Source: Amoebophrya sp. A120 (taxonomy: Eukaryota > Protista > Dinoflagellata). Taken from it: DNA of 64,000 nucleotides. The first letter of the stretch is position 1; every line of letters starts with the position of its first letter. Position numbers and translations under genes: made by a program. Under the pieces are notes generated by a model that saw only the letters and a program-made list of their open reading frames with translations, had not been told where the DNA came from and did no database searches. This document shows positions 15,805 through 40,900 of this stretch, piece after piece. The DNA lies in assembly GCA_905178155.1 (NCBI GenBank), contig CAJINV010000012.1:1678492-1742491 (forward strand), read 5' to 3'.

Positions 15805-16901
15805 TTCCTCTGGAGAAATACAACGAAAAATGAAAAGGAACGTACTAAAGGAGACACCGTGCAAGAACTCTCTTGAGAATACAGCCCCAGTTCGTCGAAC
15901 TTTTCAGGTGCAGTATCTTTGTCTGCGTTGATTCTTAACAGACAAGTAGAACGTGTATAATCTATACCATCATGTAACAACCCTATGTATCAAACAACCC
16001 AAGAAGACTATAAAACCCTTCTACGCTGATAGGAAATACAGCGGACCAAATTGAGATTTTGCAAAAAGTATCTATCAAATGCACCAAAAAATCGGCATGC
16101 GTACTATTGTATGTACTTTATTTGAAGCGCTGAGCATGAAACTCCTTGTATTATGTCGGTGTAAAGAAGAAGTATCCTTCCTATCTCAAGACCGTCATGA
16201 CGATGGTAGCGGTACAGGCCACGGAAGTTGGTGGTCTTGCTTAAAAATCCGATTCGCCTTGTTCCTCCCAAAACCAAAGAGCAGACACGATCGATAAATT
16301 CGACGAAAGAACAGGTAAAAAGCTGCCTCTAGCTGATGTACTACATGTACTGTGTGTGATCGCGCAACGGGAAACTTTGTGGTTTTGTTTTTGAGGCAGT
16401 GAAAACTCAAACTGTCCAAATTCGTTTCTTCTTCAACCGCTCGAGAGGACGAGGCGATAGCTGTCGCGTCAGAGAGTTGTAGTTTAGTTTTGTGGTAGGA
16501 CAGATCGAGAGGCGCAGGATTTTTCGTCGAGAGCGGTGACTTATGAAGGTTGACACAAATTAAGTGTTAAAGCTTGGCACTGCCACTGGCAGTCGTAGCC
16601 TGATGCAGATTCATCTGTGCGAACGCGGGTAGTACAGTGCGTGGCTATACTTAGTCTCGGACGAGCAACTCTTCTGGCTTCCATTTTGATATGCTGATGC
16701 GCATCGAGTTTAAGACTAGCACTAGATTGATGGGACGCACACGTTGTGGTGCAACGACTAGTAATATGCACGTACGACTACGAGCAGCATAAGCAAACTG
16801 TACAACTTGTTCTGGCAAGGGGCTGCAAGTTGGTTCCTTGGTCACCGAATCATGAGTAACAACTGCGGGTAGGCCGCCTTGGGACGACGACGAGCAACAA
16901 G

Positions 16902-19900
16902 ATGGACAACTACAGTAGGCCGCTGCCGGTGACCTCTGCTCAGTTCCGCAGTAGCAGGGAAGTGCTTCGCGGTCGGACTACAATTAAGGGTTGAAAAAAT
17001 TAAGGTTTACATCAGGGTTTTGGTTCGTGGTTTCATAGATTTCGCAGCCCCCGCCTTTGTCCCTCTTCGCACCGCCCGGCAGTTGTCCAGGTGGTGCCTT
17101 GGTTCGTATTTCGTCTGGCTGGCAAAACCAAAGCCGCCGGGCCTTCAGAGCTGAAGGCCCNNNNNNNNNNNNNNNNNNNNNNNNNNNNNNNNNNNNNNNN
17201 NNNNNNNNNNNNNNNNNNNNNNNNNNNNNNNNNNNNNNNNNNNNNNNNNNNNNNNNNNNNNNNNNNNNNNNNNNNNNNNNNNNNNNNNNNNNNNNNNNNN
17301 NNNNNNNNNNNNNNNNNNNNNNNNNNNNNNNNNNNNNNNNNNNNNNNNNNNNNNNNNNNNNNNNNNNNNNNNNNNNNNNNNNNNNNNNNNNNNNNNNNNN
17401 NNNNNNNNNNNNNNNNNNNNNNNNNNNNNNNNNNNNNNNNNNNNNNNNNNNNNNNNNNNNNNNNNNNNNNNNNNNNNNNNNNNNNNNNNNNNNNNNNNNN
17501 NNNNNNNNNNNNNNNNNNNNNNNNNNNNNNNNNNNNNNNNNNNNNNNNNTGTTCTGGGCGGGTTTGTTCGCCCATATCGTGCCCAGGCAACCTGCCTGGC
17601 CTTGCAAGTTACTTGGGGCGAGTGACAGGGCGCCCGGTTGCTCTGCCTCCGGATCTCGTTCCGCAGTCTTGCGGGACAACGTTCGGAGGCAGAGGTAGAT
17701 CACCATCCTGGCCAGCCAAAGAGATGCTTGCCCCCGTGATGGCTGCCGCCAAAGCGGCAGGGTTTTGGTCAGGGTTTTGATCCGAAAAGGCTCACCGCAA
17801 TCGAAGCAAAAACTTATTTTTTTCGGGAGCTTCCCCCGAGCTAATAAAATAAGTTTTTGCTTTCGCTTTGCTCTCCTTTTTGTCGCCGAAAGTGTGGAGC
17901 TGTTCTGGGCGGGTTTGTTCGCCCAAATCGTGCCCAGGCAACCTGCCTTATGACGGGCCCGCCTGGATGGGACCCAATCTGAAATTATCTCCGATTTTTT
18001 TAAGATTTTTTTTTTTGAAAAAAATTTTTGCCTCGGTAAAATGCTGCAACGCCGCCTCCGTCTCCTGACTAAGTTTGCGAATGTCAATCCATCATCGCAT
18101 TCTGCTGTTTCTTCCTTACATTTGAATCGAGAGAAAACGTGTATAGTAGCTGTATTCTTTGCATGAGGTGAAAGTGTATAGATCGCATAGATGCTCTACC
18201 TACCTTGTGTTCTGTTTTTTTACCACGATGGGATGCGTCGGTTGTTTTTTTATGTTGAGCTGAGAGATAGTTTAAGTAGAAACACACAATCCCACTTAAG
18301 CGCCTCTAGCGACTGTATTTAGCTACTGAAAAACTAAAGTTGTTGTCAGTCGCCGCACAACCGCATCACGGCGCGAAAGCCCGTCGCTGATTTCGCCGAT
18401 GTCCGCGCACCGTCTGATCGCTATCCAAGTCTCCTCCTTCGCCCGTTATTCCACCGCTTTTCCACCGCTGAATCTTGACGAGGCTCCGATATCCCGCAGA
18501 CACCGACGCTTCGCGATCCGCACCGCAAATTCGCTGATTGTGATACGCGGAAGAGCAGGGGCTTGGCGATCCTCGTATTAGTAGGCGGGACGCCAAGCAA
18601 TGAAACAAAAACGCAAAGACCGCTGACGTCGAGCCATTCTTTTTCTACATCTCTTTCCTCACACTTCTATTCTTGATCTCAGTCTTTTCGTCGCTGTAAA
18701 CTTAAAGGAAGTCATCACTGTATAATTAGGCGCGGCTGTTTGTATGATTAAGTAATAAATTTTGAAAAGATCTTCACATACGCAGTATGTTTGGGATGCG
18801 ATCTGTATTTGTATGCCGCCCAGCGAGGCGGCGAATTTATGAATTTTGCGAAGGAACTTTTGGCGCATTTTGTATGATCTAGTTGTCGCCGTGAGCGATG
18901 TGATTTGTGGTGGGGAAAAGTGATGTCTTTGGTACCTTTACGAACTCTTTCTTTCGCCGCAGGATCTTACTCTTTCTTCCGCAGCATCGCAGTGATAGCA
19001 GACCGCGAACTACGCCAGCACTTCAGCAGCTAAATACAAGTCGCAAATCTAGTCGTGTTTTGTTACAGGTATAGACGGTTAATATCTGTCGGCGCGCGCA
19101 TGATGATTGTGATCACAGGTCGACATGGAGCTCTGCGAAGAGCCTATGATTGGCAATGCGAACTTCTCATCTGAAATCGCCCCGGCAGTATAGCACTCAA
19201 TGTTCTCACAGTATGAAACAGCGCTTTTTTTCACATTCATATAAATTGCAGCCTGTGTCACGAAATCGCCATCATTATTGCGCGGAGCAGTCGAATTTGG
19301 CGTGAAGAACTAAACTTGTAATAGGTAGAAGTAATGTTGCAACTCAAGCTCCACCGCTTACGACAAAGGCTTTTCTTCTACTTGTATCACACTCACCGAC
19401 GCCGCATCTATCGACATCTACCTCCATCGACCGAAATCGCAATGCTTTTTTCACCGACAAAGCAGCCTCCTACTGCTCTACTTCTTTCTGCCTAAGCTTT
19501 CCTATTCAAACCGACCGACACTTCTGCCACAGATTCCAGATATAGCCGCTTGCTTACCACCGCAGAACCGACGCCATGACTTCAGTTTCCTTTTCGTGCG
19601 AGCATCTTTGTCACCGGGATCACACCATGCTACGCTGAGCTTCGCTTCGTTTTAAAATAAAATTAAAATTTACATTTTGTGAAAACAGACGCAGCTTTTC
19701 CAGCTGGTCTGTTTTCAATATTGAAACATTATGTTTTGTTCAAACAACAGCTTACGCATCCCGTTTCAGAAGTGATTAATTATATTTTACTATATGAAAT
19801 TTTTTTTCCCAACATGTATGTAGTGCTTTTAAATCACTTCTGTTTCCCGCTCCTTATTTACTGCGTGGTGCTGATATGTTGCCCTCCGCCGCGTGTAAGT

Positions 19901-22900
19901 CTGTTGGCGTGGTTCTCCTACCACCAGGCGTCAAAGTTTTCTTTACGAAAAAATTGAACATCCTACTAAAATCATAGAGTGCCCCGCACTAGATGATCTA
20001 TAAGTATGCACTTTTACTTTATACTGTTTGTCATCTCGTGCAAAGCGGCAGAATTTGAAGTCTATTCATTTACTCAGACATAAAGTAGAAAGTACGCGGG
20101 AAAATAACCGTAAAAATTGCGATACTATTTTCGATAGTAAATCTTACAAGTATAATGATGTAAGTTTCCAATTTATTATATTAGTTCATTTAGTAGTCGC
20201 AGAATTTACATAGACGACACTAGGACAACTACTCCTCATCGTCCTGGTCATCATCCGCATTCGCCACCGGGGCCGGGGCAGCACCACCCGGGCGGTTCAA
20301 GTTCAACTGGATCCGGCGGCGCTGGGGCGGCGGTCCCATGTTGTTGACCGCGTTGGCGTTCAAGGCGGGATCACCGTTGGGGAGCTGGCGGGTGATTTCC
20401 ATCCAGAGCGACTGCTTCGGCGACGGGTGCAAGAACGAGTACGGCAAGACCAACGCGTTGTACGCACCGACGGCCTCATTGTACATACCTGATAATGTTG
20501 TTTTTGGAATATGTACTTGTAACTTTTTGCATCTTAAATACGCACGTTCATGCGGACATCATTTGTGATGCAATTTTCACCAAACCGCATCAGTACTTGA
20601 GTCAAGATTATCAACAACAAAGCAGCAATATGTACCAGCCGCCAAGGCGGTGCGCGCCGGTCCCTCTTCGAAACTCTGCATGCTCTGCACGAGCGGGAGG
20701 ATGAGCTCGTCGGTGTAGATGGTCAGCAGCGACGGGTACTCGGTGAACAAGCGGTTGCTCATGTCCTCGTTGTGCGTCAACATGTTCGCCGCCCGGTCCG
20801 CGTGGATGTTGGCGATCCCGTCCAAGTAGCACTGGATCATCGCCTTCATCATGTCAATCAACGACTTGAACTTGTGGCGGTTGGGCAACCGCTGGTGCAT
20901 CTCCAGCTGATCGCGCAAGTCGGTCACGTTCTGAATCGCCGGACGGTGGGCCCAGTCACGCAAGGTCTCGCACACGCCGCCGATCGCGCGGAGGCGGCCC
21001 TCCAACGTGAACATCTCGTCCTTCGCCCGATTCTCATCGAGGGTGAGCAAGTACCGCCGGAACTTGCCGGTGTACGGGTTGACGAAGTTGCCCGGCATTT
21101 TGGTGAACGGAATCACCGTCATGCCAATGAGCGCGGTGTGCAAACCCTGCAGGGTGACCAGAACCGGATGGGGATGGTCGAGCGACATCCAGTTGATCAA
21201 GCGCGTCAAGTAGTCCTGAAACCACGGCTGTCCCTGTTATTGTAGATTATGTGTAGTTCGTGATGCATGTGCTACATACCGTAGCAGCACTACGTAGGCA
21301 CCAAATAGATGTAGCAAAGCATCACTATCACCGATGGAAATAGATGTTACGAATGACGCTCGATCTCTCAATGCATTTCCAACAAAACAACTATATAAAA
21401 TCGCGCCAGATCCTTCAGCACCGCTTCGTTGATTCCGGCAAACCGGGCACGCTTCATGGCACCGATGATGAGGACCTCAGCACGCTCAGCGGTGTCCATC
21501 GCACGCATCAACTCCGGCAGAGTATGCAACTGCAAATAGATGAGGCGCATATTTTTGTCATGCAAGACAGCCTACTGCTGTCATGCGAAGCAGCTTATTT
21601 CTTTCCATTCTTTTTTTTTCTTGATTTCCTTTTGTTCACTGAGACTTGTTCTGGTTCTTTCTTTATGTACATTCTCTTTTCACAGTCCCATCCACGAAAG
21701 TATAGTAGTGTTCTAGTGAGAAACTCATCACTTGCCTGGAGCAAGAACTCCTCCACACGCCTCATCAGTTTTTTCTCATAAGCGGTGAAGCGGGCCTGAC
21801 CACCGCCGAGGAAGATACCCAAGTTGATCTCCATCTGCTTCAACAACTCCTCGACCGCGGAGAGACGCAGCATCTGATATTTGTGTTTTATTTTCATTAC
21901 AAAGAAAGACGCGCTCAAGTGTATTTGTGATGCAGTTTTCCGAAAAGTAATGCACGATCCAAGTGCAAGATAACGTATACGAAAAAGCACAAAGCTTGCG
22001 TGATTCTATCTGTACAAATTTCATGTAGAAACAGCCGTCGTTGTAGCACGAATGTAGTGTGTATCAAATCAAAATCATTCATACGTCGCTGGCCAGCTCC
22101 CAGAAGTGCTCCTGCAAGCTCTGACCACCGTTCTGGCCGGGCAGCTGCTGCAACTGGGTCTGGATCATCTCCTCCAACACCTGGATCTGACCAGACTCAA
22201 TGGCGTCCGAAATGACCTGCAGGCTCTCCTTGATCTCCGGCATGTTGCACCCGATACCAGTCACGAACGGGCGGGCCTGCGCAAAGCACCTGTTTTCATG
22301 CATGAAAAGATTATTACTTTCGCGATTGCGTGTCGTCTTTGCATCACAGTCTTTCGCATGTCTACACACCATCACATCATGCATATTCTAAATTGAAACA
22401 AACCAACACTCAATACCAGTTCCGGAACTCAAACAGCGTGCGGGGGCGGCGCTCGTTGCCCCGGACAAAGAGTCCTCCACGGAATAAGGCCGTGATGGCG
22501 GCACGTTCGCACTCGTCCTTGGCAAACTGGTCGTTGAGCATATGGATGAGACGATTGCAGGATCCGAGCGCCCGGAGGCTATTCTGTTCATCAGTCAGGG
22601 ACGCATAACGTCCCTGGAGATGGCGCTGTTGTAGTGGACGTGCATCATGTAGTTTTTTTGCATGAGAAGCTTGTATTTTCATCACAAATTCTTCGCATGA
22701 AAGCATCTAGCACAGCAGCAGCGGTTCTATGCATGACAAAAGCATCCTTTTTCCAAATTAAATACACTGAATCTCAACTCCTGGGCGGGGGTGGTGTGCT
22801 GAAAATCCAGCGAACTCAACCGGTTGACCTCAATGGCGATTTTGTCCGTCCGCGTGTACAAGAGGATGGAGCGGACGGCGGACGGAAGGTTCGCCATGCT

Positions 22901-25900
22901 GCGCGCGATCTGCTCTTCCGCGGGGTCCTGTAATTCACCAATCTGGACGGCGCTCAACTTGGACAAGTACTGGACGCGACTCAAACGCTATGCATATGAA
23001 AAAACGTCCTCAAAAGTGCCATGCTGTGCTTTCATGTAGACCTCAATTCCGCATGACAATTTCATACTTATTTCATACAAGATCATCGCATGACAAAAAG
23101 AGCATATTTTCCCACGAGAGCAACAACCTATTTTGCAAGACAAACAGATACTTCACATGCCAGAATACAATGGTGCTTTTGGGTTTTTGCAAATTACATA
23201 TAAGACGGGCGCCCGTCTTCTGCTCCTGGCGATAGATGGTGGACAAGGCGGCGATGTGGTTGGCGTCCACCTGTGTGTCATGGTATTAAAATTATTCATG
23301 ATATGCTCTTCATTTTTCGTGGTACATCAAGCACAACATGCATAAATCGAAGTAAGTTTTCAAATAGTACAATACCGGCATCGCCAGTTCGCGCAAGTAC
23401 GCCTCCGCGAACTCATTGGTGTTCTGGGCAGCAGCATTGCGTCGTTGTGCCATCTTGACTTCTTTTCTCAAAGAAAAGGAACTCTCAAGAGCAAAGGATC
23501 AAGTCCCGGATTTAGTTGCTACGGTTTTAGATTGAAAAAGGCGATAAAAGGTGGCTGCTTTTTAGTATGTGTAAAGGACAACGAAAGCAAAATCAAAAAC
23601 AAAATAAGGCGAAGGTAGAAAAGCAAAGGGCGGCCACGTGTTCTGATCCCCAAGATCCTTGTTAAACTGCGTAAAGATGTGGCTTTTTTTTCCTACTGTC
23701 ATCAATCCAAAGCTGTTTTTTACACTAATACACAACGCGCTCTCTCATCAGAAAAAAAACAAACAAAGAACCGACTTCAGATGGCCTTTCACAAACAGTT
23801 TCAGCATTTACGAGAACGACATCCACACGGACGCGGCCTGATCGCCTTGGACATGGACAGTCTCAGCGTCGCAAGATGCACAAAAAAAAAGTACAACTCT
23901 CAGCCTAAAGCGGTGCGTTATGATATTGATCTTTGATAGTTGTATCTGGCAGGTGTGAGTCAAAGCTGTGTTCGAGATTTGTCATGCATATCACACGTAA
24001 CAAAAGAGAACAGGTCAGGAGCATGCTCACGACCTGAAAGGCGTGGAGTTTCTGCTCAGCGCGCGAGCTTCGCGTGCTGTTTTTACGCTGCATACAGCGC
24101 AGCGAGATTTTCTTTCCTGCATGACAAATGTATGGCCCTGGCCTTATGTATATGACATACTTGCATGTAAAACTCTTTGACTTTTCCCCACTACTGCCAG
24201 TCTGGTTCTATATACTATGTTTTTACTCATGTGCGCTATGTTTTTTACTACTATGTACTATGGAACTCGTGCGCGTGACTAGTGTTGCTTGATTGTACAA
24301 AACTACATCGAACTCTTCTCGTTATTGCAGTGCATTATAGTGCGTTCTATCCTATTGATAATCTTACAGTATTTACTACATTATACAATCAGGTGGACAG
24401 GCAAGGCGGACGCGGTAGCTTGCTTCTATGCCACCGTCAGTTTGGCCATGGTGATCTCAGAGGTGCCGCGCCGTGTCGTTCATCATCAACAAGTAGAGCG
24501 CGGCTTCCAAGTCCCAGGTCACGAAGCGTCATCGTCCATGCCACAGGTGCTGCCAGAAGGTGTCGGACGTGCCGTCCGTGACCACCGTTGCCCAGTCCAC
24601 AAGAGAATTATACAAGAGGAGCTAAATATTGATCGTCATTCTGCCGCTTTACCTACTTATAAGCTGGTACTTTTACTTGCTCAAAATCAACGGCTTTTCG
24701 TAGAGCTAGAATTCCTAAAAGAAAATAGATGTTTTGAAGAGTCAAAAATAGATATTTTGCGAGACTCAAAGTGGAGCACTTTCTACTTTGGAAAGTGAAT
24801 TGGAGCTATCTTTTTTCTGAGCGACAAAATATACAAAAAGATATTTTTAGCCGACCTATATTCAGTTATTTCCGGAGCTTAGTTTTTTTCGCGATACATG
24901 GCCGGAAGAAAGTTATTTTGGAAAATCCAGGAGATATTTTGAGTGAGAGAAAAAGAGGCATTTTGCGAGGTCTTTCTGAGAGAGCATTTTTTGAAGTACA
25001 AAAATCATACAAGAAGAGCAAGAATTTACTGAAGTTACATGTGTGTTCTTTTCCTACGACTTGCTGCGCAACGACATCTGCAGCTACGCCACCACCGGGC
25101 CATCCAGCAACGTATCCGCCCACGCTTCCTTTCCATTCTCCGCTTTATCCTGCTTCTTCGTCTTCGCTTTGATCTTCTGCTTCTTTTCCAGAAGCACCGT
25201 CGCCAACTCCAGTTCCTCCGCGCTGATTTTGCGAAAGTCGATCCAGTCCCCGGTAGCTGCGGATGGATCCATGTAGAGAAACGCATTTGCCGACACTTCC
25301 ATCATCGCGCCAAACTCCTTCTGCTTCGCTTTGTCGCCGTTCGTCCGCTGTGCAGCAAATTCCCGTATCTCCTTGGAGTACTCGGCATATTGGGCTCGCA
25401 GAATAGCCAGATCTTCTGGCTTCGACACCTGCAGGTAGTTCTTATCATCTCCTGCGTTCTCCGTCAAGAACCGCGTCCGCATCGCCCACCCGTTCAACAA
25501 CGCTTCCACCCACAACGGACCCTCCTTTTCGGCGTACCGCATCGACCGCATCGGCCGCGCCGTGGATTGGCATTTGAAGTCGATACCGGGATGCAGCAGC
25601 AACTTCTTGATTTTCTTCGCCAAACCGCTGTCGATGCACTTGGTCGACAGTCGCACCGAATCGCGACCAGTCTGTTTTTTGTCGAATACGGTGGAAGCCT
25701 CGATGCACTTGAAGCCGGCTACGCGGGTGGAAAGCAGCATATTCGCCACCTTTTGCCGTTCGTCCTGGTGGAGCTGGTAATTCTTTGCATCGATCACCAT
25801 CTGCGCGATCTTGCTCAACACCTGCGTCCCACCTTGGGTTTCCGCCTGCGTGGAAGATTGGGTAGTAGCAGCGCCAGCAGTTACGGTATGCGTTTTCCGA

Positions 25901-28900
25901 ATGGCGTCGGCATTCACATCGTCGCTGCGCAACTCGCGGTACGTCATTTTGTTGTCGTCAACAACCCAGATGCGGTCCGTAGACGATGGCGCCATAATCG
26001 ACGTAGAAAGCGGCTGCAAGAACGCATCCAGATTCGCCTGCGCGATCGCCTTTTCGCTGTTCAAAGCGGTGGAAAAAGGTTCTTCAGTCGTCTGCTCCTT
26101 CCGGTCTCCAGCACGACCGTTGCCGCTTTTGAAGAAGGACAAGTTGATTTTCTCGCCACAGTAAAACACGGACTTCGGCTTCCGCATTTTCACGTCGAGC
26201 TTCACGGTGTAAATCGGAGAGCTGCTATGCACTGAAAACTGGTCCCGTAGCTACAAATTTGTCCTGCTTTTTGCATGACTGATTATGTATGCGCTTTGTA
26301 TGTGCAAAACATATCTACAGCAGCTGCGCTTTTGTATTTGGAATGCGCAAATTTGTACTACAGGATCACTTTTACAGGCGTATATTGTGTCCAAGTCGTA
26401 TCCGGTATCTTCGTCATCCGAGAACAACCCTGCGTGCGTGGTGAGCTGCAAAGCGACGTCGAGCCACTCCTTGCCATTGCGGTTGGCCTGGTTTTCCCGT
26501 AACAGAATCGCTTTGAAGGCGGCAGGCTGCAAGACGATATCACACACGAGGAGCGTGCCCATTCTGCCGGATTTGCCGTGGCGAAACTGCGTAATTACCA
26601 GCGGCGACAGCAAGGTTGACACTTCCACAATACCCTCGAGGTCAGGCAGCACGACGTCGTTATTTTGGTCATCCAGATCCGGGTCTTCGAGGACGAGTTC
26701 GTCGTTTGCTATGCAGTGCACAGCTTCCACCGCCTGAAGCTTATTTGTCATGCGAAGCGACAATGCAAATGTGAAAAATATCTATCAGGTGGTGGACAAG
26801 TTGCACTGCATACCATCTCCGTCGAGTTCGGCAAGCGTCAGTTGATCCAGATCTCCGTCCTGCACACCGCTCTGCTTGCGCTGCTCCCGTAATGACTTCA
26901 GCTTTGCCCGTTTGGCCCGGACGTAGCGGGAAAGCAGGATCGCACTAGCAGGCTTCGGCCGAGCCTTCGCGCGGATGTTCGGGACCGTAGTATTCGACAG
27001 TTCTTGGTTGGTGCGGTTGCACATTGCCGGGAGCAACACGCGGTAGTTTCCCTGCTCCTCACGGTGCCGCTTTTCCACCTTGCTGCGTACCGCGGAATAA
27101 AAAGCAAGCTCCGAATTGCAGGGGACGAGCGGACGGATGTCATCTTCGTGATCGCTTTCACTTTCGGAAGAGCTCTCCTGTGCTTTCTGTTCCTGCTCCA
27201 TTTTATCCATGCGCGCGGCCATCAGGATGTACTTCGCCTTCTCGTCCTTGTTGTTGGGATCCCACTTATTGTGCTTTACGTTTTCGACCAGAGCTTCCTT
27301 TTGGGTTCGCTTCGCGCCGTCAGTCGGGAAAAAATCACGGCGCTTCTGATCAATGGCGCGATTGCAGGCGTAGGCACGCTTCGGCGGTGGATGTTCCTCC
27401 TCTTCTAGTTGCTGGTCTTCGCGGCGGTGCCACTCGATATCGGCGCTCGCTTGGGATTCCATCGTCTGCCAGTCCGCACGGTTCAACGCCGAGTCTGCTA
27501 CTATGGAAATGAAAACTATTTTGCGACGCATATACTACGTCAATTTGATGCACGAAAGCAGTGCCTTCTACTTGATTACAACAACTACAGGCTGCGCATG
27601 TAGATTATGTCTTACTACTTTTTTTATGTTGAAACTCGATGCTGGTCATGAATTCGCACTGTAAGTGACGCAGTGTAATGTCGCAAAGTGATTTTCTTCG
27701 CAGCATATCGCCCGGCACGCTTTTGGTTCCCCGCGCAGCGTAGTGCCCATGGTATTTGAACCGGCCACCACGGCGCTCGCAGTTTTTCAGGCAGACAGGT
27801 CCGGGCGAATTCCCGCCCTAATTGGCTGCTAAAAAATGGCTAATTTGTATCGGCGCCGTTGTCTCTGCCATGTGTTGCGCGCCGGGTGGCATGCTTGGCA
27901 GGAGCCGGCTGCCGCTCCGCTTCTTTGGGGGTTTTAAAATTTAAAAATTCGGCGTGTTTTTGGGTATAAAGGCGGGCGGGGGGATTGTCTTTGGTTTGTT
28001 GTGGGTGTTTCCTTTTCGGGTGAGTGTTGTGTTGTTCGAGCTCCCGGGGGACTTGCTCATGTCGCTTCCCGAATTAGATCACCCGGATGTGGTTGGGTTT
28101 GGGTGATCTAATTGCCCAGGAAGGTGGGCACTAAACGGCAAGGCCAAATTTCTAATTTGCATTTCTAACTTGCAAAGCAAGTTCTTCGCCCATCCGAAAC
28201 GGGTCTTCTAACCCGTCAGCTAACCGCATCTAATTGGTCGGCTAACCTGTTCTAACTGGCATCTAACTGCGTACGGGTAGGGAATTCCAATGGGATTTCG
28301 TTGATGTTTTTTTCATCAACGAAATCCCATTGGAATTTCCGACCCTGGTGTGCACAGGGGGATGCAAGTTAGAACACGATTAGACGACAAATTAGAAGGG
28401 GCCAAAAAAAATTAGATGCAGGTTAGCAGGCAGGTTAGAATGGGGGGGCTCTGGATTCGGGTAGCAGTTTAGCAGACTCCGGAGGGGGTTCGCCGGAGGT
28501 AAATTAGACGACAAATTAGAAGCCCGGTGTGGGGACTTGGATCTCAAGCAACCGCATTCGGGGTCCGCCGGCCTGCCTTTTGGGTTTCCTTTTTTGGCTT
28601 TCGAAATGTCCGCGGCGGGGGCCGTTTTTCTTCTCTCTGGGTCTTCATTCAGCCAGCTGCCAATGTTTCGGCCGCCACCTTCCTTCCCCGTCCTGTTTTC
28701 GCCTTCTCCTTTGGTTTTGGCCTTGGGTTCGAAAGGCCATCAAATTAGCCCGCTTTTATCTTCCAATTAGAAACGTTAGGTCGCCCGGGCCTGTCTTCCT
28801 GAAGTTTTTGCTACTGCGATTAACGACCTGCAAGTACTCAGTCAGTTTCTGCATCTGCTGCTTGCGAATCTCCTCCGGTTGATTCATCATCCACCGCTGA

Positions 28901-31900
28901 ACGCTGTGCAGGGAGATGCTGCCAGGGTCTTCTTGGACGTACACCGCAAAGTCCATTTCTTTCAAGTTCTGCATTTCCGCTTCGAGGTTTGCTTTTGCCT
29001 TTTGGATCCACTCTTCGCGCAGGTCTCGTTTGCCATCCCGGTGCCACAAAATAACTCGGCTGATGAACAACATCTGCTGGGCGGAAATCCGTGCAAGCTC
29101 GATCTGAGTGAGTTTATATATGCACATGATGTAACGTTCATTGTTCCGACGCGAATTATGCATGACAAATTTTGCAAAAAGTATAAAGAAATACTAAGTC
29201 TTTTTGTGCGTCGTCGAATATCACCTCGCCGATTCCGATTCCGCACATCAGATAGGCGATGTCGTCGTAAACCGCATCCAGGTCGGACAGATATAAATAA
29301 ACCTCCTGCAGATCCTCCAAGAAGCGGCTCCTCAAACTAGTGCGGGTGCGTTCGTGAAGGTCGTTTTTGAGCATTGCAGCATTATAATGCTCAATCGGCT
29401 TCAGAATCATGTGCAGAAACCGCGAGACGATGAGAAAAATGAACTGTGTGCCTGGAGATAATTGGATTTATTTTGCATGGTGGTGCACTTTTTTAATCAC
29501 ATACTGGCTTACAGATTGCATTACAAATCATGCTGCCACGAAGTGTCTTTACACATGTAAAAGCGTTTGCATTTCTAAGAATTTGCATTACAGATTTATG
29601 CTATACCGCTTTCCTTCGACATGTCCAGCTTGAACCCGTGCTCCAGTATCTTTTCCGCCCCAAAACTGACCCGCTCTCCTAGTCCGTAGAAGATCCTCGC
29701 CAAAAACATACTGCAGCACAACAGCATTTGTCCGAGGGCTTGCCGCACTGTGAGCCAGCGGGTCCAGACTGGCGCCCGCCAGCCGCGATACAAACTATGT
29801 AATCCACGCAGCGCAGCGGTTCTTCCGTCCTTCGGCACTATCAACATCCGCTGCTTCACCGAGCATCCGCGGAGGAACTTTTTCTTCTTGTAGTTTATCT
29901 CGCGTCTGTCCAAGAAGTTGTTAAAGGCTTGGTCTTTCGCCATCGGTTCGCTCTTGTCCCATGGCGCAATCCACCGAGCAACGCCGTCGAGCGAGTTGTG
30001 TATTTTTTCGGACAGCAGTTTCACACTGTGCACCTGTAGATTAGAAGTAGTTGGCTTTTGATTTGAAGTGCACATTTGTCATGCAAATAAGCATGCGATC
30101 ATAGTACTGAAATGCATTACAAAAATCAAAAAAAACAGTACTTGCAGCCGCAGTCTCTTCTGCCATCCTTTCGGATCCAGATTGAGCATCCCGAGATACA
30201 TCTCGGCTATTTGGCGGGTTACTAGTGCTGCTTGGTGCACCTTACACCTCTGTGTCCACAGCACCACATTGGCCAGGTGCTTGCCCATCATAAAAATTCC
30301 GCCGATGAAGAAGAGCGTATTTATTGTGCTTCCACCCGAGTCCGTCACTGGACTCCAAATTTGCACGCACTGCTGCCCGAAACGCCCGAAAAAAATTTCC
30401 GGGTTGTGAAACGTCAGCACCTGGTCCGCCACCTCCCATGCTTCTTTCACTCCAACCGCGAAAGCAGCTCTTTTGTCCCTTTACTTTCGCCCCGAAGTTC
30501 TGCGACGAAGGATATAGCACGGTGTGCGTTGGCACAAACACCGACCCGATGTTCATCAGGCTTCCGCAGCAGAAGGTAATCGCGACGATCGACGCCATCA
30601 CATGCGCGAAGATCTTAATCCTCCCCCTCACACTGTTTTCAAACAGCATGCTCTGCGTCGTGGTTCCGTCGATCTCCACCCGGTAGTGGACCAAGGTGAG
30701 TTTCGGGTTCGCGAAGTACTCGCGTGCGTACTCGAAAGCCGTCTCGCATAACAGGTAGCACAGCTTCCACAACTTGCGTGGTGCCAAGTAGGCTTTTGCT
30801 GTGAAGAATTTTTTGCATTCCTCGTTCTTTTCTTGTTCCGCCTCGGCCTTCTTCTCCTCTTTGTTCATCTTCTCGTCGCTGCCGAAACAATAGAAGATGA
30901 CCACAGAAGGAGTGGGTTTGCTTTTTGTCTACTATGATGATCCGCGGTGTAGGTGTGGAAAGAATAGTATGACTTTATGGCGCACTATCTACATTCCAAA
31001 AAAAAACGGGCCCTGTAGTTATACTAGTGGGATTGTGTGTTTTAGTTACTTCATTATGTATGTTTTTAGTTATATTAGTTTCATGTAGACACTAGATTTA
31101 GGTCCTGGCTCTGCAAAACAAATATCATGATAGTTGTTTCTTCGATTGGTCCCCGATCTTCAGGCGGACGGCCCGGGGCGGGGATTCCGGCTATATTCCG
31201 GCTATGACCTGGCTAAATTTTTGCGCAGCCCGCGCAGGTTTTTTCTTCCTTGGGGCCGGGCTGCTCGGGCGCGCCAGCGCACCCTTCCCCCCATGCGTGG
31301 AGCAGCCGGGCGGCGGGTGTTTGGCGCAGCTGCGCGCGCGGCCCGCGGCGCCAGTGCTTCGGCAGCGCCTCGCCCCGGGGTGCCGCCCTTGGCCGTTTTG
31401 AGTTTTAAAGACTCGCAAGGTTTTTGCGCTGGGGTTTTTAAATTCCCAAGAGGCCGGCCCACTTGGCCGATATTTCTTCCAGCATTCATCCTGCCGCCGC
31501 CTGGGCGACAGGGTAAATGCTGGCGGAAATCGTCGGCCAGGATCCGGCTAAAATCCGGCTAAATTGGAGCTAATTCCCAAAAGAAATTCAGCTAAGTATC
31601 CAGCTAAGTGCTCCGCTAAATTCCAGCTAAATTCTGGCTAAGTATCCGGCTAAGTATCCGGCTAAATGTTGGACACTGGGAAAACGGGAAGGATTTTGGC
31701 CCCGGGGCCCCCTCGGGCCCTCCGGCCCCCTCCCGGGGGACCCAATTTAGCAGAGCACTTAGATGGATACTTAGATGGATATTTAGATGGATTTTTTTTG
31801 GCCTCCCGAGCCGAAAAGCGGCCGCGAATTAGCGAGGCCGGAGGCAATTTAGCAGAGCATTTAGCCGGAGGCCCGCTAGATATCTCCGGCGTTTCCCGAA

Positions 31901-34900
31901 AAGGCCTGCGCGTGAGGCTGGCCGGCCACGCGGCATTTGCAATACCGGGCCCGCGGGGTCGGGCCCGTCGCGCGCGGGCCGGGGACGCTCCGAAGCCGTG
32001 CCGCGGCCGCAGTGCGGGCCCCGGATGGCCCGGCCCGTTCGCTTCCGCCGCCTACGGAGGGATGGGCCGGAGCCCGCGATCGCAAGGGCGCGCGCCTTCT
32101 TTTGGTTCCACGCCCGGAAGCGCGCCCGCGGGCATTGGGTCCGTGCGCTTCCGGCTTTTCAATTTAGCCAGAATATAGCGGTCGTTTAGCGCGTTGCCCC
32201 GCCCCGGGTCGTCCGCCTGACGATCTTCGTCTTCACCGGTAGAGGCACTGCTATTTCAGAACTTGAAAACAACCGTCGCTCCGCCATCCGCTCCTGAAAT
32301 AAACAAAAACCTCTCATTTTTTCAGAACAAAAAACAACCGCATCGTGGTAAAAAAACGTAGCAACTATCGAAAAAAAACAAACACGTAGCACGATAGAGC
32401 TACACAATACAGACCGCATAGCTACTAGTCACGTTTTTTTCATAATCATCTCCGCCGGTGCTCCGCTGACCTTCCGGGCTTCAAAATCATCACGCCGACA
32501 TCTTATTTTCTTACCTTGATGTGCTCTTCCGCCCGGTCTTCGTCTTTTCCTTGAAAACTTTTCTGCTATACAGGGCTGTAAAGCGGAGTACTTACGAACC
32601 CTTCCGCAACTCCGAAACCCTCGCAGCCGCACTATGCAGCGGCTTCCGCGATCGGGTTGGGATCGCTGCAACCTGCGATCTAATATTTGTCATGCAAAAA
32701 CAGAAGTTTTTGCATGACAAATTTTCGCATCGCAAGGTTACGAGTCCCAACCTTTACGACAGCCGCTGCTGTCAATGTGCGGCCGAGTGCCGATCTGTGT
32801 GTCGCCTGGCAGATCGGAAAAAGTGTTTGCGATCACGGAGGAAAGGCAGACACCGCTCGGCGGTATGGCCGAGGAAAAAAGCCTAGTATTCACATAGCAG
32901 CAACAGCCGCGGGTCGTGTGTTGTTTCTTTTACTATTCGACCACAGTGATCAAATAGAAAAAGAACACGCTTCTCCCCTCCTACTTTTCCGGTTCTCCCC
33001 GTCGTGTTTGATATGGTGATCGCGGTGACAATTGTTACTTCTACCTCGTCATCCCATGAAGGGTGAAAAGGGACTCGAAGTAACAACTAGGTGCCTTTAC
33101 CGCTCGGCCAAATGGCCGAGCGAGTAAGAACAGGCCGGAAGCATCGTATCAAACACGATAGCTTTTTTTGCGCCGACCACGGAGCATAGAGCTGTCGCAC
33201 CACGACGCTGTGGCTCCGCGGTTTCTTAGTGCTTTTCTTGACCGCACTACACTGCGCAAAAAATCACCGTCTTCGGGAATCGAACCCGAGGTCGATGAAG
33301 GGTGAAAAGGGACTGGGACAAACAACCGGGGGCCTTAACCGCTCGGCCAATAGGCCGAGCGAGAGAAGACGATCACGCGCGTCGAGTTCGCATCCTCTCA
33401 TCGATCGAGGCGGATTCCGTGCTGTTTCGCATTGTGCGGTGACCACAGCATGGGAATTCGCGATCGATGATGTGAAATCGAAAGCGATCACCTAGGTTCG
33501 AATCGACGATACCATCGGGATTCGAACCTATGATAAAAGTGATCGAAATCGGGTGTCGACGACGACCTAGGGGCCTTAACCGTTGGGCCAAGCGCCCTAA
33601 CAGCCCCAGAATAGAACAAAGAGGACCTAAAACAGGTCGAAGCAGCCTGCTAGTCGATTTTCGACTTGAAAATCGAGCTGAGCAGGCGAAATCGGTATAG
33701 AAATGGCCCTCACACCCTGTATAGCAAAAAACTTTTCAGTGAAAATCTAAACGAAAAATTCCAAAAAATTTTCAAAAAAAAAAATTTCAAAAAAATCGGA
33801 GAAAAATAGACGAAATTTCTTATCAGTAGGGCCCATCATAACCTGCCTGGCCTTGCAAGTTACTTGGGGCGAGTGACAGGGCGCCCGGTTGCTCTGCCTC
33901 CGGATCTCGTTCCGCAATCTTGCTGGACAACGTTCGGAGGCAGAGGTAGATCACCATCCTGGCCAGCCAAAGAGATGCCTGCCCCTGTGATGGCTGCCGC
34001 CAAAGCGGCAGGGTTTTGGTCAGGGTTTTGCTCCGAAAAGGCGCACCGCAATCGAAGCAAAAACTTATTTTTTTCGGGAGCTTCCCCCGAGCTAATAAAA
34101 TAAGTTTTTGCTTTCGTTTTGCCCTCCTTTTTGTGGCTGAAAGTGTGGAGCTGTTCTGGGCCGGTATGTTCGCCCACATCGTGCCCAGACAACCTACCTG
34201 GCCCTGCAAGTTACTTGGGGCAAGTGACAGGGCGCCCGGTTGCTCTGCCTCAGGATCTCGCTCCGCAATCTTGCGGGACAATGTTCGGAGGCAGAGGTAG
34301 ACCACCCTCCTGGCCAACCAAAGGGACGCCCGTTTCTGAGGCGTCCGCCGCCGACCTCATCTGCAAACCAAAACCTTACTTTATTAGGTGGCGTTTCGGA
34401 GAAAAAATAATTAAGGTTTTGGTTTAGAGATGAGGTCGGAAGCCCGGTTTTCCCGGGGCTTCCCCCGAGCTAGTACGGTATGTCTTTGTCGTCAAATCGG
34501 CCACCCGGGTGTGCGGGTCTAGGCATGGCCAACATCCGCCGCCGGAGATTGGCTGGGCAAAATCCCGGCCACAACAAGAGGGCTGCTTTCCGGGGCTGCT
34601 TGCGGAGCTCGTGTTGAAAGCAAAAACTTATTTTATTAGGTCGTGTTTCGGAAGAAAAAAAACTAAGTTTTTGATTTGAAGTGAGCTCGTTATACTCAGC
34701 CGACAAAAGTCGGCCTCTCTTTTTGAGGTCAAGTTCCTACGGGCCGGCCATGGCCAGCCTCCAGCCACTGCGAGTGGCCCAGCAGGAAGTGGACCGCAAA
34801 AAGAGAGGGCGATCTTTGAGGTTGGGTTGTCGACCTCATCTCCAAACCTAAACCTTAATTTTTTTTTGTCCGAAACGCGACCTAATAAAATAAGGCTTTG

Positions 34901-37900
34901 GTTTGAAGATGAGGTCGACGGCGGACACCTCAGAGCCAAGCATCTCTGTGGCTGGCCAGGAAGGTGATCTACCTCTCCCTCCGTACGTCGCCGCGCAAGA
35001 TTGCGGAGCGAGATCCGGAGGCAGAAAAGACGGGCGCCCTGCCATATGCTCCAAGTAACTTGCAGGGCCTGGTAGGTTGTCTGGGCACGATGTGGGCGAA
35101 CATACCGGCCCAGAACAGCTCCACACTTTCAGCCACAAAAAGGAGGGCAAAGCGAAAGCAAAAACTTATTTTATTAGCTCGGGGGAAGCTCCCGAAAAAA
35201 AATAAGTTTTTGCTTCGATTGTGGTGAGCCTTTTCGGAGCAAAACCCTGACCAAAACCCTGCCGCTTTGGCGGCAGCCATCACAGGGACAGGCATATCCG
35301 TCGTTGGCCGTTAAGGTGCTCTGCCTCTGCCTCCTCCCGTTGTCCCGCAAGATTGTGGAACGAGATCCGGGGGCAGAGAAGCCGGGCGCCCTGCCAGTTG
35401 CTCCAGGTGGCTTGCACGACGAAGCAGGCCGCCTCGACACGATATGGGCGAGCATATCGGCGCAGCTCGGCTCCGCACTTTCGGCCACAAGATGAAGCAC
35501 AAAGCGAAAGCAAAGGCTTACTTTTCTAGATCGGGGGAAGCTCCCGGGAAAAGTAAGTCTTTGCGTCCATGTCCGTGAGCCTCTTCTGAGCAAAACCCTG
35601 GCCAAAACCTTGCCGCTTTGGCGGCAGCCACTACAGGGGCAAGCATCTCTGTGGCTGGCCAGGAAGGTGCTCTGCCTTTGCCTCCGGACGGCGTCCCGCA
35701 AGATTGCGGAACGAGATGCGGGGGCAGAGAAGCCGGGCGCCCTGCCATTTGCTCCAGGGAACTCGCAGGAAAAGGCAGGCCGCCAGGCCAAGATAGGGGC
35801 GCCCGTGTCGGCCCAGTTTAGGCCACCAAGTTCGGCCGAAAGGGGGGGGCCAGGGCAAGGGCAAAGGCGCAAGCGTTAGTCTGGGGAAAGCTCCCGGAAA
35901 AAGTCAGAACCTGCTTCCATTTTGGTGCGCTTTTGTCATGAAAAGGCCTAGCCGAGAACTTGCCGCCTTGGCGGCAACCGGGACCCGGCCAAACCTCCAG
36001 CCGGGCAAGCCCGCAGCTGCTCAGCCTCTTCCCCCGGACCCCGCTACGCGCCACCGCAGGATGAGATCTGGGGGCGGAGAAGCCAGGCCAGCAGCCCGGC
36101 GCCCCAAATACCTCGCGGCGGATGGCATGCGTCTGGGGTTCTTCTGGGGAGGTGCCGAGGCTAATATCTTGGCCAGCAGTCCAGGTCAGCAGAAGCCGAG
36201 AAAAATGCCGCCGCGGCTTCATCGTATTCACCCGGGGGAGAGGTTGGAAGCAGCAAGCGCGCGGCCTCCATTTTGCCCGGCTTCTGCTGGTCTGGATACC
36301 GGCCGAGATGTTGACATCGGCGCAGCGAGCTTTTTCGGCTGGATGGTCTGCGCTTTCCTTTTCCATTCAGAGCGAAGAGAAAAAAAATGAAAAATCGCAA
36401 ATCAAAACCTTGACCAAAACCTTAATTCTTTCAACCCCTAATACAACGTCAAGAGCCACCCTCACCGGCCGGACCAGCAGAACGAGAACTCCCCGTGGAA
36501 GCTCGACCACTACTTCGTGGTGTCGCAGGAGCTGGTGGTCCAGAAAGAGCCACATCGTCAAGAACACCAAGACGGCTCGGGCTCGGCTCCTCCTGTCCTC
36601 TTCGCTCACTCTGCACCTGTTCTTTCTCCTGCAGTTGCAGTCGTTCTATCTGGTTCAGCATGCGGATCTTGTACACGGAAGACGACGCATGCTGCGTCAC
36701 GAGGACGACCGAGGGAAAACAAAAGAGGAAATTGGGTACGAGTTCCATATGCATTGCAAATATGTCCGGGTCTGGAAGGTTGGGACTTGTCATGCTACAT
36801 CTGGATCGTGGAAAGATTTGTGTTGCACGATTACCAAAAGAGGTCCACTTTTGAACAAGTTTGGAGGCAGTTTCTGATGCAGGAAAGGCATGATAGAGAT
36901 CTCACAGAACCTGTCATGGTAGGCCACGCATACAAGACCGCGTGGGCCATGGAGAATCTGCATGACAAACCTGGATGTCCACGGCAGCCGGATGTCCGTG
37001 ACCTGGTTATAAAGGGCTTCGTCGATCGATTGCGCCACTAGGGCCTTGTGTTCCGGCTACTCCGGATCGCAATCGATGGAGGGCGGGGCCTGCACCGGCG
37101 ACAGGCGCTATCCAACCAACCAACCAAACCTAGCAATCTTCCAGACCCAGACATCTTTGCATTTGATATTCCGCGAAAAAAGCGACCTCTTCCCGCTAGG
37201 CAAGGTGGTTGCAGGTTTGTGGTCTTGGTTTTTCGGATCGGGTACTACAGTGCGAGAAACGAACGGTTTTAATATTTCTACGAACGGCACGGGCACCAAC
37301 GCAACCCCAACCAACAGCACGACGCCGAACGGCACTAGGTCTACGAGCACTTCTCCCGGCGAGACAAGCACCACGGTTGGTGGCGTAGCGAACGACAACG
37401 CGGCGGCTGTTGGCAGCATCAGGTGGGCATCTTCAGGTAGCCCGACGTCCGCTGGTAGTGCCAATGCCGGTACGAGCGGTTTTATCACGACTGCTGGAAA
37501 CATGACAAGGCGGCGGAGCAAGAATGACACGATCATAAGTCCCGCCACCAGCAGCACAAACATAACGAACGCGGCGGTAAGTGGAGAGAGTACCATTCGC
37601 GCGACGAACATCACCAATACGACTTTTAATGGGACCCGGACGTCGATGAATGGCACCACGAATTGGACCAATTATGGGAGTGTGGAACTCCCCATCCCCC
37701 TCAACTGATGTAAGTAGCTTGAGATTCTCTACACTTACAGCAATGCAGGCATTCACGATCAAGCAGCCTCTAAATCGAAAATTTGAAGGTGGATTGTGCT
37801 TATTGTTTGGTCTACTACTACTTCCGAAAGTTGTCATGCACACAGTGCAAAAAGCAAAACTAAGTCACATAGTCGGTATAATTTTGCATCACAAAAAATG

Positions 37901-40900
37901 CTAATGCAAGTCTTCGTGACGAGCAGCGGGAAGGGGGTTTGTTCGCTTTCAGATCTTCAATTGCACTTCCTCTACAGCGACCGTGTCAGGTATTTTGTGT
38001 GAAACTTCTACCATTTTCATTCTCGACTCTCAGTTTGTCATGCTGATAAAAAGCACGTTTGGAGGGGATGTTCTTATTTGACCTGTCTTTTTTGACGCGT
38101 TGGAACACACAGTTTCTTGCATGTTCTTCCAAACTGAGACAGATCATTGTGATGGTAGAGGTTTCGCGCTGCATAGTCCCGGCTCCTCCTCCGCAAGACG
38201 CTGATCACCTGTCCTGGGTTGGCGCAGCAAATCAGGAGGTAACGGGCAACAACGTCACACATGAAGATCATGCACATGTTGAAGTGATCCTGCCCACAAC
38301 GAACACTACTGGCAGTGTTACCAACCAGGCGGTCGCCGGATGGACGGGACCAACAGGAGGAGCAACTGCTTTGAATAGCGACGAGAAAACCGTGGCTCAG
38401 AAGACGGAGAACGAGCGGGGCGGAGAAGAACGGGACGATGGGGGCGCTGATGAAGATGACCAGGACCCCCCTGCTCACCACGTTTCAGACCCTCTCTCGC
38501 AACGAGAAGATCACGTTGATTCACGACAAAGAATTACATCTACAGCTGCACCAACCGAGCATCGCGAGGAGGAGGTATCAGGAGAACCAAAGTCGGAAAC
38601 TACATCTGCTGGAACGATTTTCGCCAAACCCGTACCGAACTCTACCTCCAGTACAGCGAAAATCGACTTTGCCATAACAGAGGGATTGGAGCGTTGGGAT
38701 CGGGAAACGCGGAGCAATTTGGAGGAGTACAAGGAGAAGATGCACCAGCATCAAACCACAAGAACTTTCAGTACAACGGTAACCACGAGGACCACAAACA
38801 AGCACATTTTTAGTGATGTTCTGTCTAGTACGGCTGTTGATCGCCGGGATCCGTCTCCGTACCGGATATCAAAGGTTTCGAAGCACCATGACCCTACTTC
38901 CTCCTCACAGCAGGACGATGAACAAGCGATTTACTCCTTTCTGGAATTGAAAGGGGAGAACCACCAGCACCACAACCACCAGCAACTACTTGCCGGAACA
39001 GATGAAGACTTCATGGCGAACAAAAAGGAAGGTGTTGCTGCGCCGGGCACTCGCACTGCGAGCAGCAATTTTGTTGAAGACACAACGACATCAACTCGTC
39101 GTGCTGGCAATTCTGAATTTTTGGAGAAAAGCGAGGGAGAGATGTCGCCTACTCCTGCGTCCTCCTCCTCGTCAACGCCTGTCTCGTCGACGGTCGTTGA
39201 TTCGACAAAGCCAGCATCTACTTCCACCAGGAAGCCCGAATTCAACTCCCAATTGAGGACAGACGGTGCGAAAATTATTCCCGTCACGGGTAGTGACGGA
39301 GCTGCGGCCGCAACATCATCTTCGACACTGCTGGACCAGGACGAACAGTCAGCCGCACGACCACGTGGTGTGGCGGTTCAGGAAGAAAAACTGGTGGCTG
39401 GCGAACAAGAAGAATTTGATGACACGGCTGCGTTGATGTCCTCAGAAAGATCCGGGACCGCGACGGACGAGGAGAGGACCGGCGACAAAAAAGGAAGCTT
39501 CGACGAAGAGCAGAAGGCGGAACGCGAGGCGCCAGCGTCGTCGGCAGTATCGACGCGAAACGAGCTGGACTCGCACGAGGAAAAAACCAGAGAGGCCCCT
39601 GCTGCTGGTCCGCATGATCAACAAGCCCAAAATCCCCTGCAAGAACACACGACGGAATTCGGCTCCACTGCTGCGAATGCGGGTACCGAACACAACTATC
39701 CGAAGGACGTCGTCGAGCCAGCAGGAGCGGTCGCGGAACTACAAGTGACTTCGGAAGACGAGGAGTTCAAGTCCGCGACGCAACGGCAACAAGAACAGCA
39801 ATCCTCCTCCACTACAGGTCCGCTAACAGGGGATTTGCACCCGGGCAAAGACGACGAGGAAGGATTTTTCGAGCCAGATGCTGGGCTCCGGACGACGACC
39901 GACCTAGTCCCCGGTGATCTTACACCCGCGATGAACGAGGTTCACACGGAAGTTGTCAAGCGGGACTCGCAGGGCGGCCCGGAGGAAGAGAGTAGTACAG
40001 TCGCAAGTAAAACGACATCTTCGGGAAGTGCTAGCGGCACTCCACCTGGCGAAGAACAAGTAGAGGAGGGCCACCGCGACCAGGAACAACTACACGAGAC
40101 TGACGGTAGTTCTTACTTGCCTGTTGACCGTGCAGCTTCTGGGAAAAATCTTCACGCTGGGGACACACCAGGCGCAGTGGCAGAAGAGCGGAAAATTACC
40201 GCGATGAAAATACCGGAGAAGAGCACGGAGCAAAGTGAAAATGCCGCAAGAAGAGTCTCCAAAATGCGGGAGGCCACTGCGGTGCCAGGAGATGAAAACA
40301 CTGGCCCCGCGGCCAAGGTAACAGGAAATCCCAGTCGGAGTGCGTCACGGGGAAAGATGACTATTCCCACGAACGAAGATGATACCAACAATGTTGCAGG
40401 GATATCTGCAGCGGCAGGCGGTTCTACTGGCAGTGGCATGCATAATTATGGGGCTACTTCTGCGGTGGAGACGAAGAAATCGCTTTCGGTTAAACCACCC
40501 ATCCCGAGGAGCCCAGCTTCTCACTTTCGGAACTTAGGAAGGCTCATACCGCCGGCTCTTCGGGCCTCCGGCAATGGTTACGTCTCGTTGGATGGAGGTA
40601 GCGAAACCGCAGAATCGGGCCCTGCCCGTGGAACAGCCACCTCTGCCGCAGCTGCAGTTGGGTTCCTCGGCTCCGCTTGGAGAATGGGCGCACGAGCTGC
40701 TGCGCGTGCGCTTCCAGGACGCGCACTAGCGGCACCTCGCCGCGGCGCGGGCCGGACTGTTGCCCCGACGGGAGGCGGGGGTGGTCCAGGGGATCGTGGT
40801 GGACCACCGGACGCAGTCGCAGAAGGAGATGACGATGAGGAAACCGAAATATCGGCCGAGATGTTCATCCCCCTCTTGGCGTACATTCAAACGGCGCTTG

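Follow-up and report, generated by a model that had tools for sequence, protein, structure and literature searches.

Can a stack of nested transposons nearly 20 kb long lie inside a protein-coding gene and be removed from its transcript as one intron? The question is raised by a 64,000-nt stretch of the dinoflagellate Amoebophrya sp. A120 (assembly GCA_905178155.1, contig CAJINV010000012.1, positions 1,678,492 to 1,742,491 of the forward strand; hereafter the window, whose own numbering is used throughout), in which a host gene, paralog B, is interrupted within its first coding exon by an outer foldback element at 16984–36441 (19,458 nt, including a gap of 389 N at 17161–17549). On the plus strand, the sequence shows the 5-bp target-site duplication (TSD) TACAA on either side of this element, at 16979–16983 on the left and 36442–36446 on the right. 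Within it lies a single-copy, hAT-like element with terminal inverted repeats (TIRs) at 17949–33840 (15,892 nt, minus strand, with genes antisense to the host), flanked by the 8-bp TSD ACCTGCCT (17941–17948 and 33841–33848, plus strand, from the sequence), and this inner element in turn contains two inserts resembling miniature inverted-repeat transposable elements (MITEs). A sequence-only reading of the window had described this four-level nesting, which the sequence confirms, and had suggested that the whole stack is spliced out as a non-canonical intron. The RNA-type evidence presented below supports that suggestion, and we consider it likely that the 19,463-nt block forms a single non-canonical intron and that pairing of the TIRs probably serves to recognise its ends.

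The spliced-RNA evidence consists of contigs from three runs, X3, X5 and X6, which represent two samples of one study and were compared across the stack over 16725–36724, whereas the genomic DNA evidence comes from one run, X1. The exon–exon junction, named beforehand as the key test, is present in the contigs of all three RNA-type runs: position 16978 is joined to 36442, with 19,463 nt skipped and five letters ambiguous at the joint, at a depth of 8.0 in X3 (side 254), 9.8 in X5 (side 224) and 5.6 in X6 (side 69). Over the 254 + 224 nt around the joint the X5 contig shows no other letter, X3 record 9 and X5 record 12 have none over 16725–16978, and one copy of TACAA is kept in the RNA. No contig from exon 1 into the outer TIR is listed for X3, X5 or X6. 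In the DNA run the joint is absent (0 of 1 run), and its contigs cross both borders of the element, exon 1 to left TIR (16725–17013) and right TIR to exon 2 (36414–36665), each at a depth of 41.9. Since unique DNA in X1 has a depth of 42–43 (42.8–43.5), no second, empty and identical gene copy is visible in this run, with DNA depth taken as a rough guide only to copy number. Contigs of X3 and X6, compared with the window, also skip the downstream introns where X1 is continuous, and these two runs therefore behave as spliced RNA; their long pieces over 37199–46000 contain 0–2 other letters, so that they come from the same strain as the window. A raw RNA run, X9, had no reads at 36000–46000 and was hence counted as no test. 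Contigs prove that the joined form is present, give no share of it and can hide a rare empty allele.

How the ends might be recognised is indicated by the seven small introns of the same gene (190–441 nt), which are TAT-type introner elements (IEs), two of them with a decayed end. These introns start with TAT, end with ATA and have 5-bp direct repeats, the signature of A120 introners in Farhat et al. 2021. The borders of all seven agree with cleavage 1 nt upstream of the 5′ TIR and 4 nt downstream of the 3′ TIR (the −1/+4 register), and four are unambiguous because their direct repeats have diverged, two being seen as direct RNA joints and two deduced from piece ends together with the public gene model. 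This register can also accommodate the giant intron, at 16983–36445 (plus strand, 19,463 nt as assembled), a placement that would follow from the register and is ambiguous within the 5-bp repeat; GT-AG, GC-AG or AT-AC ends result from none of the six equivalent positions of the cut. One of these four, the small intron at 37990–38179, begins with GT, and an in-frame AG at 38175–38176, 3 nt upstream of the site used in the RNA pieces and the public model, is passed over, which suggests that stem geometry overrides canonical signals. The 50-nt ends of the outer element form a duplex of −50.3 kcal/mol, compared with −21.7 to −44.2 kcal/mol for eight small introners, and they are mutual best partners in the 19.5 kb, the next best partners reaching −34.5 and −38.9. 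They also stay paired in minimum-free-energy folds of the outer element when the insert is removed or reduced to its ends, and the reduced insert closes as a stem of its own. We infer that splicing probably proceeds in one step guided by end pairing.

We propose a scheme in which (i) the two 42-nt TIRs would pair in the pre-mRNA; (ii) the inner element would close on its own TIRs and loop out; (iii) the machinery that serves the 200–400-nt introners would cleave 1 nt ahead of the stem and 4 nt beyond it, that is, between 16982 and 16983 and between 36445 and 36446; and (iv) this cut would take away the outer element together with one 5-bp repeat. Once it can be spliced out, the outer element could receive larger, antisense cargo as a neutral landing site. 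A more general proposal can be made only tentatively, and we stop somewhat short of favouring it: the strain may splice by stem geometry alone, cutting any TIR element with a 5-bp duplication at −1/+4 regardless of sequence and of length up to at least 19.5 kb, so that coding exons would harbour large transposons, among them a DDE/CxxH transposase lineage overlooked in this strain, as nested, gene-carrying giant introns.

The host gene is open across the joint. Exon 1 (16902–16982, plus strand, coding from its ATG) is defined by the RNA contigs and by the N-terminus of the public Amoebophrya sp. A120 model P0001, and it is homologous to the related gene paralog A from the ATG at 8352. RNA pieces and joints define exons 2–5 (36446–36746, 37173–37671, 37958–37989 and 38180–40984) and exons 6–9 (41204–41281, 41707–41881, 42323–44092 and 44468–45521), all on the plus strand. 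The 5′ untranslated region (UTR) reaches at least to about 16656, and the X3 contig extends at least 323 nt upstream of the joint; the transcript thus begins before the insertion and not downstream of 36441, a start that the sequence-only reading had named as counter-evidence. The joined coding sequence (CDS) of 6,795 nt in nine exons contains no internal stop, and its translation is identical to P0001 at 2,264/2,264 residues, so the public annotation already spans the giant intron. The downstream open reading frames (ORFs) that had been noted as intact are indeed open (989, 653 and 427 aa from stop to stop), not as separate genes but as exons 5, 8 and 9 of this one 2,264-aa protein. No Pfam family was found for the protein, in which two stretches are weakly hydrophobic and 16 of the 19 N-x-S/T sites fall within residues 141–360. 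An exon border at the canonical AG 38175–38176 was considered and rejected: it departs from P0001 at residues 295–305, and the RNA ends favour 37958 and 38180. The 5′ UTR of paralog B also holds a short upstream ORF at 16852–16872.

Paralog A (8352–11883, plus strand, exon borders predicted only) has no insertion at the matching site and represents the ancestral empty state. The ratio of nonsynonymous to synonymous substitution rates (dN/dS) of B versus A is 0.54 (bootstrap 0.41–0.70; 337 N-terminal codons of an earlier model that differs at residues 295–305), and 18 of the 24 DNA indels between the two are multiples of three. Paralog B does not appear to evolve neutrally, which had also been named as possible counter-evidence; the ratio attests to constraint after the duplication, though not necessarily after the insertion. 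The probability of finding no stop codon is 0.027 at 1.6% divergence and 0.32 at 0.5% under the earlier exon model, a weak argument that needs the age of the insertion. At 36704 and 36712 the X3 and X6 contigs carry the letters of paralog A; RNA editing at these positions was rejected on account of that match. At a shared coding position, the paralogs also have introners that come from different families and lie 2 nt apart (A, 8719–8872; B, 36748–37168); these are, as far as their sequences tell, independent insertions at one spot.

The outer element is of the foldback type, with long inverted arms of tandem subrepeats. Its left part (16984–17948) comprises the 42-nt TIR, the N gap and subrepeats of about 351 nt (X1 depth 495–955 at two points), and the remainder (33849–36441) comprises the rest of the left arm, the centre, the right arm and the right TIR (X1 depth about 200–290 on longer contigs); with the insert removed in silico it measures 3,558 nt, of which 389 are N. 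The arms pair over 971 nt at 85% identity, in units of the tandem subrepeats, and with TACAA on both sides this bears out the earlier description of an introner-like architecture of TIRs and a 5-bp direct repeat combined with kilobase-scale arms. The foldback elements FB and Galileo have TSDs of 9 and 7 bp, compared with 5 bp here. The TIRs, TTAAGGG… and …CCCTAA, differ by 2 mismatches in 20 nt (18/20) and 7 in 42 (35/42), and when the left 42-mer is compared with the reverse strand of the whole window, the right end scores highest, the next best site reaching 25/42 (mean 10.4, standard deviation 3.0). The count of seven mismatches had been given correctly before, but its reading as decay does not hold because other copies of the family carry nearly the same ends, with one difference in 76 nt on the left and two in 96 nt on the right; TIR mismatches were for this reason rejected as a measure of age. 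That the element is repeated in the genome is seen from X1 depths of about 200–955 on its parts against 42–43 for single-copy DNA and from other flanks at both ends, with roughly 5–7 copies of the 2.6-kb right arm by depth. Other copies lack the inner insert, as an X1 joint of 17939 to 33840 at a depth of 494.9 demonstrates, and the window copy differs from the collapsed family contigs (four X1 records) at 17 of 1,074 letters. In RNA, other copies of the family appear unspliced: a contig from another locus, at a depth of about 920–980 in X3 and X5, includes the first 76 nt of the element (16984–17059), and the right end is present in a contig of X6. Two short RNA contigs with foreign flanks of about 30 nt may be spliced/retained forks at other loci.

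The same joint would arise if the joined transcripts came from cells or chromosomes without the insertion, through a pre-insertion allele, precise excision in culture or stage-specific DNA elimination, with the inserted allele silent. A precise empty site would look identical in RNA, the well-conserved ends of the outer family may point to recent activity, the RNA and DNA runs are different samples, and rare variants drop out of contigs. However, X1 contains both element junctions at single-copy depth without the joint or a break at the TSD, the joint was found in two RNA samples, and seven other introns of this gene with TIRs and direct repeats, all present in the DNA, are cut out with an identical geometry; the 17 letter differences from the family contigs weigh weakly against a very recent jump. 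We regard this explanation as quite unlikely. A metagenome scan yielded five loci (four 12-residue matches and one weak match) that were rejected as chance, and no empty site. Artefactual joining, by template switching over the hairpin during cDNA synthesis or by chimerism with paralog A, would be favoured by the strong terminal hairpin, the 5-nt direct repeat and the paralog A letters in the X3 and X6 contigs; against it, both sides of the joint are B-specific, as the X5 contig attests, no exon-to-TIR contig is listed, and the joint restores a frame homologous to paralog A, which makes an artefact highly improbable. Removal might also be stepwise and twintron-like, with the inner element (TAT…ATA ends) leaving before the 3.6-kb foldback, or the halves might be joined in trans via the paired arms. 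The inner ends TATGA…TCATA form a duplex of −41.0 kcal/mol, like those of small introners, and the final mRNA would be the same; yet no RNA joint near 17948 to 33845 is listed, although mature RNA would not retain intermediates, and with the 8-bp inner TSD a −1/+4 cut would leave 3 extra nt, harmless within an intron. Such a route is unlikely, if somewhat less so than an empty allele.

The length of the intron could be overestimated if the 15.9-kb element belonged to another foldback copy and had been placed here by a collapsed-repeat misassembly, in which case the real intron would measure only about 3.6 kb. The N gap lies in the left arm, the right arm exists in about 5–7 copies unbridged by X1 contigs, and other family copies are free of the insert. 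Subrepeat centres are 476 nt apart on the left and 351–352 nt elsewhere in the arms, and because arm symmetry thus misfits a gap of exactly 389 nt, this gap length is approximate. On the other hand, 17550–36441 is contiguous in the window with copy-specific letters in the arms, so that both a wrong scaffold link and a chimeric join would be needed, and Nanopore reads were used to screen the scaffolds of the published A120 assembly for chimeras, a point that has weight only if the window stems from that assembly. We judge a misassembly very unlikely. A single giant intron remains our preferred reading, and several further points weigh against it. Because neither the repeated arms nor the N gap is spanned by any X1 contig, the place of the inner element in this copy rests on the assembly, and the figure of 3.6 kb would apply if that were wrong. 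The support consists of assembled contigs rather than reads, from two samples of one study; the three RNA-type runs carry only the tentative label ‘RNA?’ and come from other samples than the DNA run, and a minor empty allele could be missed because rare variants are lost from contigs. The public gene model was itself built on transcripts and probably does not stand independently of the RNA runs, and dN/dS mostly reflects the time before the insertion. The −1/+4 register is compatible with the giant intron rather than shown for it because the perfect TSD leaves six placements, and the fold support covers the outer element with its insert removed or reduced to its ends. Other copies of the outer family appear unspliced in the X3, X5 and X6 contigs. 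Finally, the outer TIR starts with TTA and two purines, the motif reported for strain A25, unlike the TAT of A120 introners, so that the element does not belong among the typical A120 introner families.

The inner element has a 12-bp TIR, TATGAYGGGCCC, with one mismatch, T-rich subterminal blocks common to both ends, and a single-copy depth of 40.6–51.7 in X1 over 17986–33869. Its genes have GT-AG-type introns; RNA-contig cover over it is little or none, and this was not used as evidence that they are silent. MITE-like insert 1 (31160–32220) has a 24-bp TIR with one mismatch and the 6-bp TSD CGATCT, and insert 2 (27787–28802) has the 6-bp TSD AGTTTT; both are about 1 kb long with TCAGG…CCTGA ends. 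The ends of the inserts recur elsewhere and their interiors lie near single-copy depth (51.7, X1), and insert 1 has other flanks beyond 32221 in two X1 contigs.

A transposase-like gene at 26785–30928 (minus strand) has IDGT, TDSGG, CxxH and TRW motifs, a frameshift near 30480 and a split caused by MITE-like insert 2. Its homologue, P0002 of Amoebophrya sp. AT5 (E = 6.7e-27), was the sole hit among 1.84 billion representatives and reads through the frameshift (identity 36% and 52%), and another AT5 protein, P0003, aligns on either side of insert 2. DGT, TDSGG and CxxH are common to the gene and the AT5 homologue, and a TRW follows later in the gene, all read by eye. The D…D motif is part of the hAT transposase order, and the TIR consensus of the superfamily is YARNG. 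Roles of CxxH and W in hAT transposases are described in PMC4763223, and the inner element resembles hAT transposons in its 8-bp TSD, short TIR and subterminal repeats and possibly in a D…D…CxxH…W order of motifs. Together, the motifs and the 8-bp TSD suggest that the gene encodes a hAT-like DDE transposase, and with homologues only among AT5-labelled proteins it possibly represents an undescribed transposase lineage. The inner element is unlike hAT in its TIR start, TATGA, which is off the consensus, in its length of 15.9 kb with extra multi-exon genes, and in the lack of a profile or structure match: Pfam returned no family at the curated cut-off for the 17, 9 and 1 proteins tried (hAT-like candidates included), searches of PDB and Atlas with inner-element proteins gave no hAT/DDE support, a catalytic E was not located in the gene, and a single-sequence fold model of P0002 was uninformative (predicted local distance difference test, 38.6). 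The earlier designation as hAT-like therefore stands on the TSD and the eye-read motifs and has no profile hit behind it. The passengers had also been called decayed, which holds only in part because, beside the frameshifted transposase-like gene, a second one gives an open chain: a permissive splice-chain search at 20229–23453 (minus strand) finds a predicted nine-exon gene of about 680 aa with GT/GC-AG introns that is not visibly broken, and Pfam has no family at the curated cut-off for five of its exon ORFs. Further passenger ORFs of 176 and 388 aa lie at 25084–26781 (minus strand); a homolog search with 25087–26250 found nothing among longer proteins, and neither ORF had a hit.

In plants and animals, large canonical introns are known that house nested transposons, frequently in antisense orientation relative to the host gene; there the GT-AG borders pre-exist, whereas here the outermost transposon's own ends form the borders. 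The giant intron is instead a very large, RNA-supported variant of the known Amoebophrya introners. For these, the sections consulted of Farhat et al. 2021 (PMC7789003) report an inverted repeat of 8–20 nt, with the motif TAT…AAA in A120 and TTA plus two purines in A25, and a 3–5-nt direct repeat over the exon/intron boundary; no U1 small nuclear RNA (snRNA) was found, and whether excision is performed by a U1-lacking spliceosome or by other machinery was left open. Five IE features recur in the giant intron, namely precise removal from mRNA, non-canonical (non-GT-AG) dinucleotides, inverted repeats at the ends, a direct repeat (here 5 bp) and membership of a repeated family, and the host protein carries the same organism label. 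It departs from the IEs described there in its length of 19,463 nt, where non-canonical A120 introns average 240 nt, its TTA TIR of about 42 nt in place of the TAT…AAA motif, its kilobase-scale foldback arms and its nested, transposase-like cargo in place of a short, transposase-free form. In that study only introns of 40–1000 bp were analysed, as a filter, so this size class was missed; its Table 1 gives a longest A120 intron of 35,152 bp, uncommented in the sections consulted, which also report no transposase in A120.

That a transposon insertion can create an intron, and that some A120 families have TIRs and ORFs, is described in the consulted parts of Gozashti et al. 2022 and 2025 (PMC9860276, PMC12130899); the former gives family median lengths of 30–654 nt, and the word ‘nested’ is absent from the main text of the latter; the supplements and datasets of both may list long copies. 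The literature searched contained no multi-kilobase nested introner in Amoebophrya, although supplements and datasets beyond it (Gozashti; Farhat figures) may list one. Nonconventional introns of euglenids (PMC11170887, PMC11282704) likewise have variable non-canonical borders, terminal pairing and a proposed MITE origin, but they belong to another lineage, reach 5,931 bp at most in E. gracilis, use another cut register and, in the portions of these articles consulted, include no nested stack.

The removal of tens of thousands of non-GT-AG introns in Amoebophrya, in which no U1 snRNA has been detected, is a standing question. An intron that exceeds the mean length about 80-fold and is removed exactly, with internal TIR-like repeats passed over, provides a natural test of long-range end pairing, and the −1/+4 register supplies an exact rule open to checking across the genome and in reporter constructs. 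The locus also presents an introner as a shelter for multi-kilobase transposons within a coding exon.

Elsewhere in the window, an ORF at 49861–52062 has a RING-like C-x2-C…H-x2-C…C-x2-C pattern by eye and no Pfam hit at E 0.1, and at 62200–64000 a strong purine skew accompanies a long open frame that continues past the edge of the window. One TAT family occurs at 1482–2742 (1,261 bp) and 59838–60116 (279 bp) with 5-bp TSDs and forms an introner size series. A candidate second nested introner is found at 52827–54028, where a 1,202-bp element with 53-bp TIRs and the TSD GAGTG lies within a small TAT introner (about 52707–54060).

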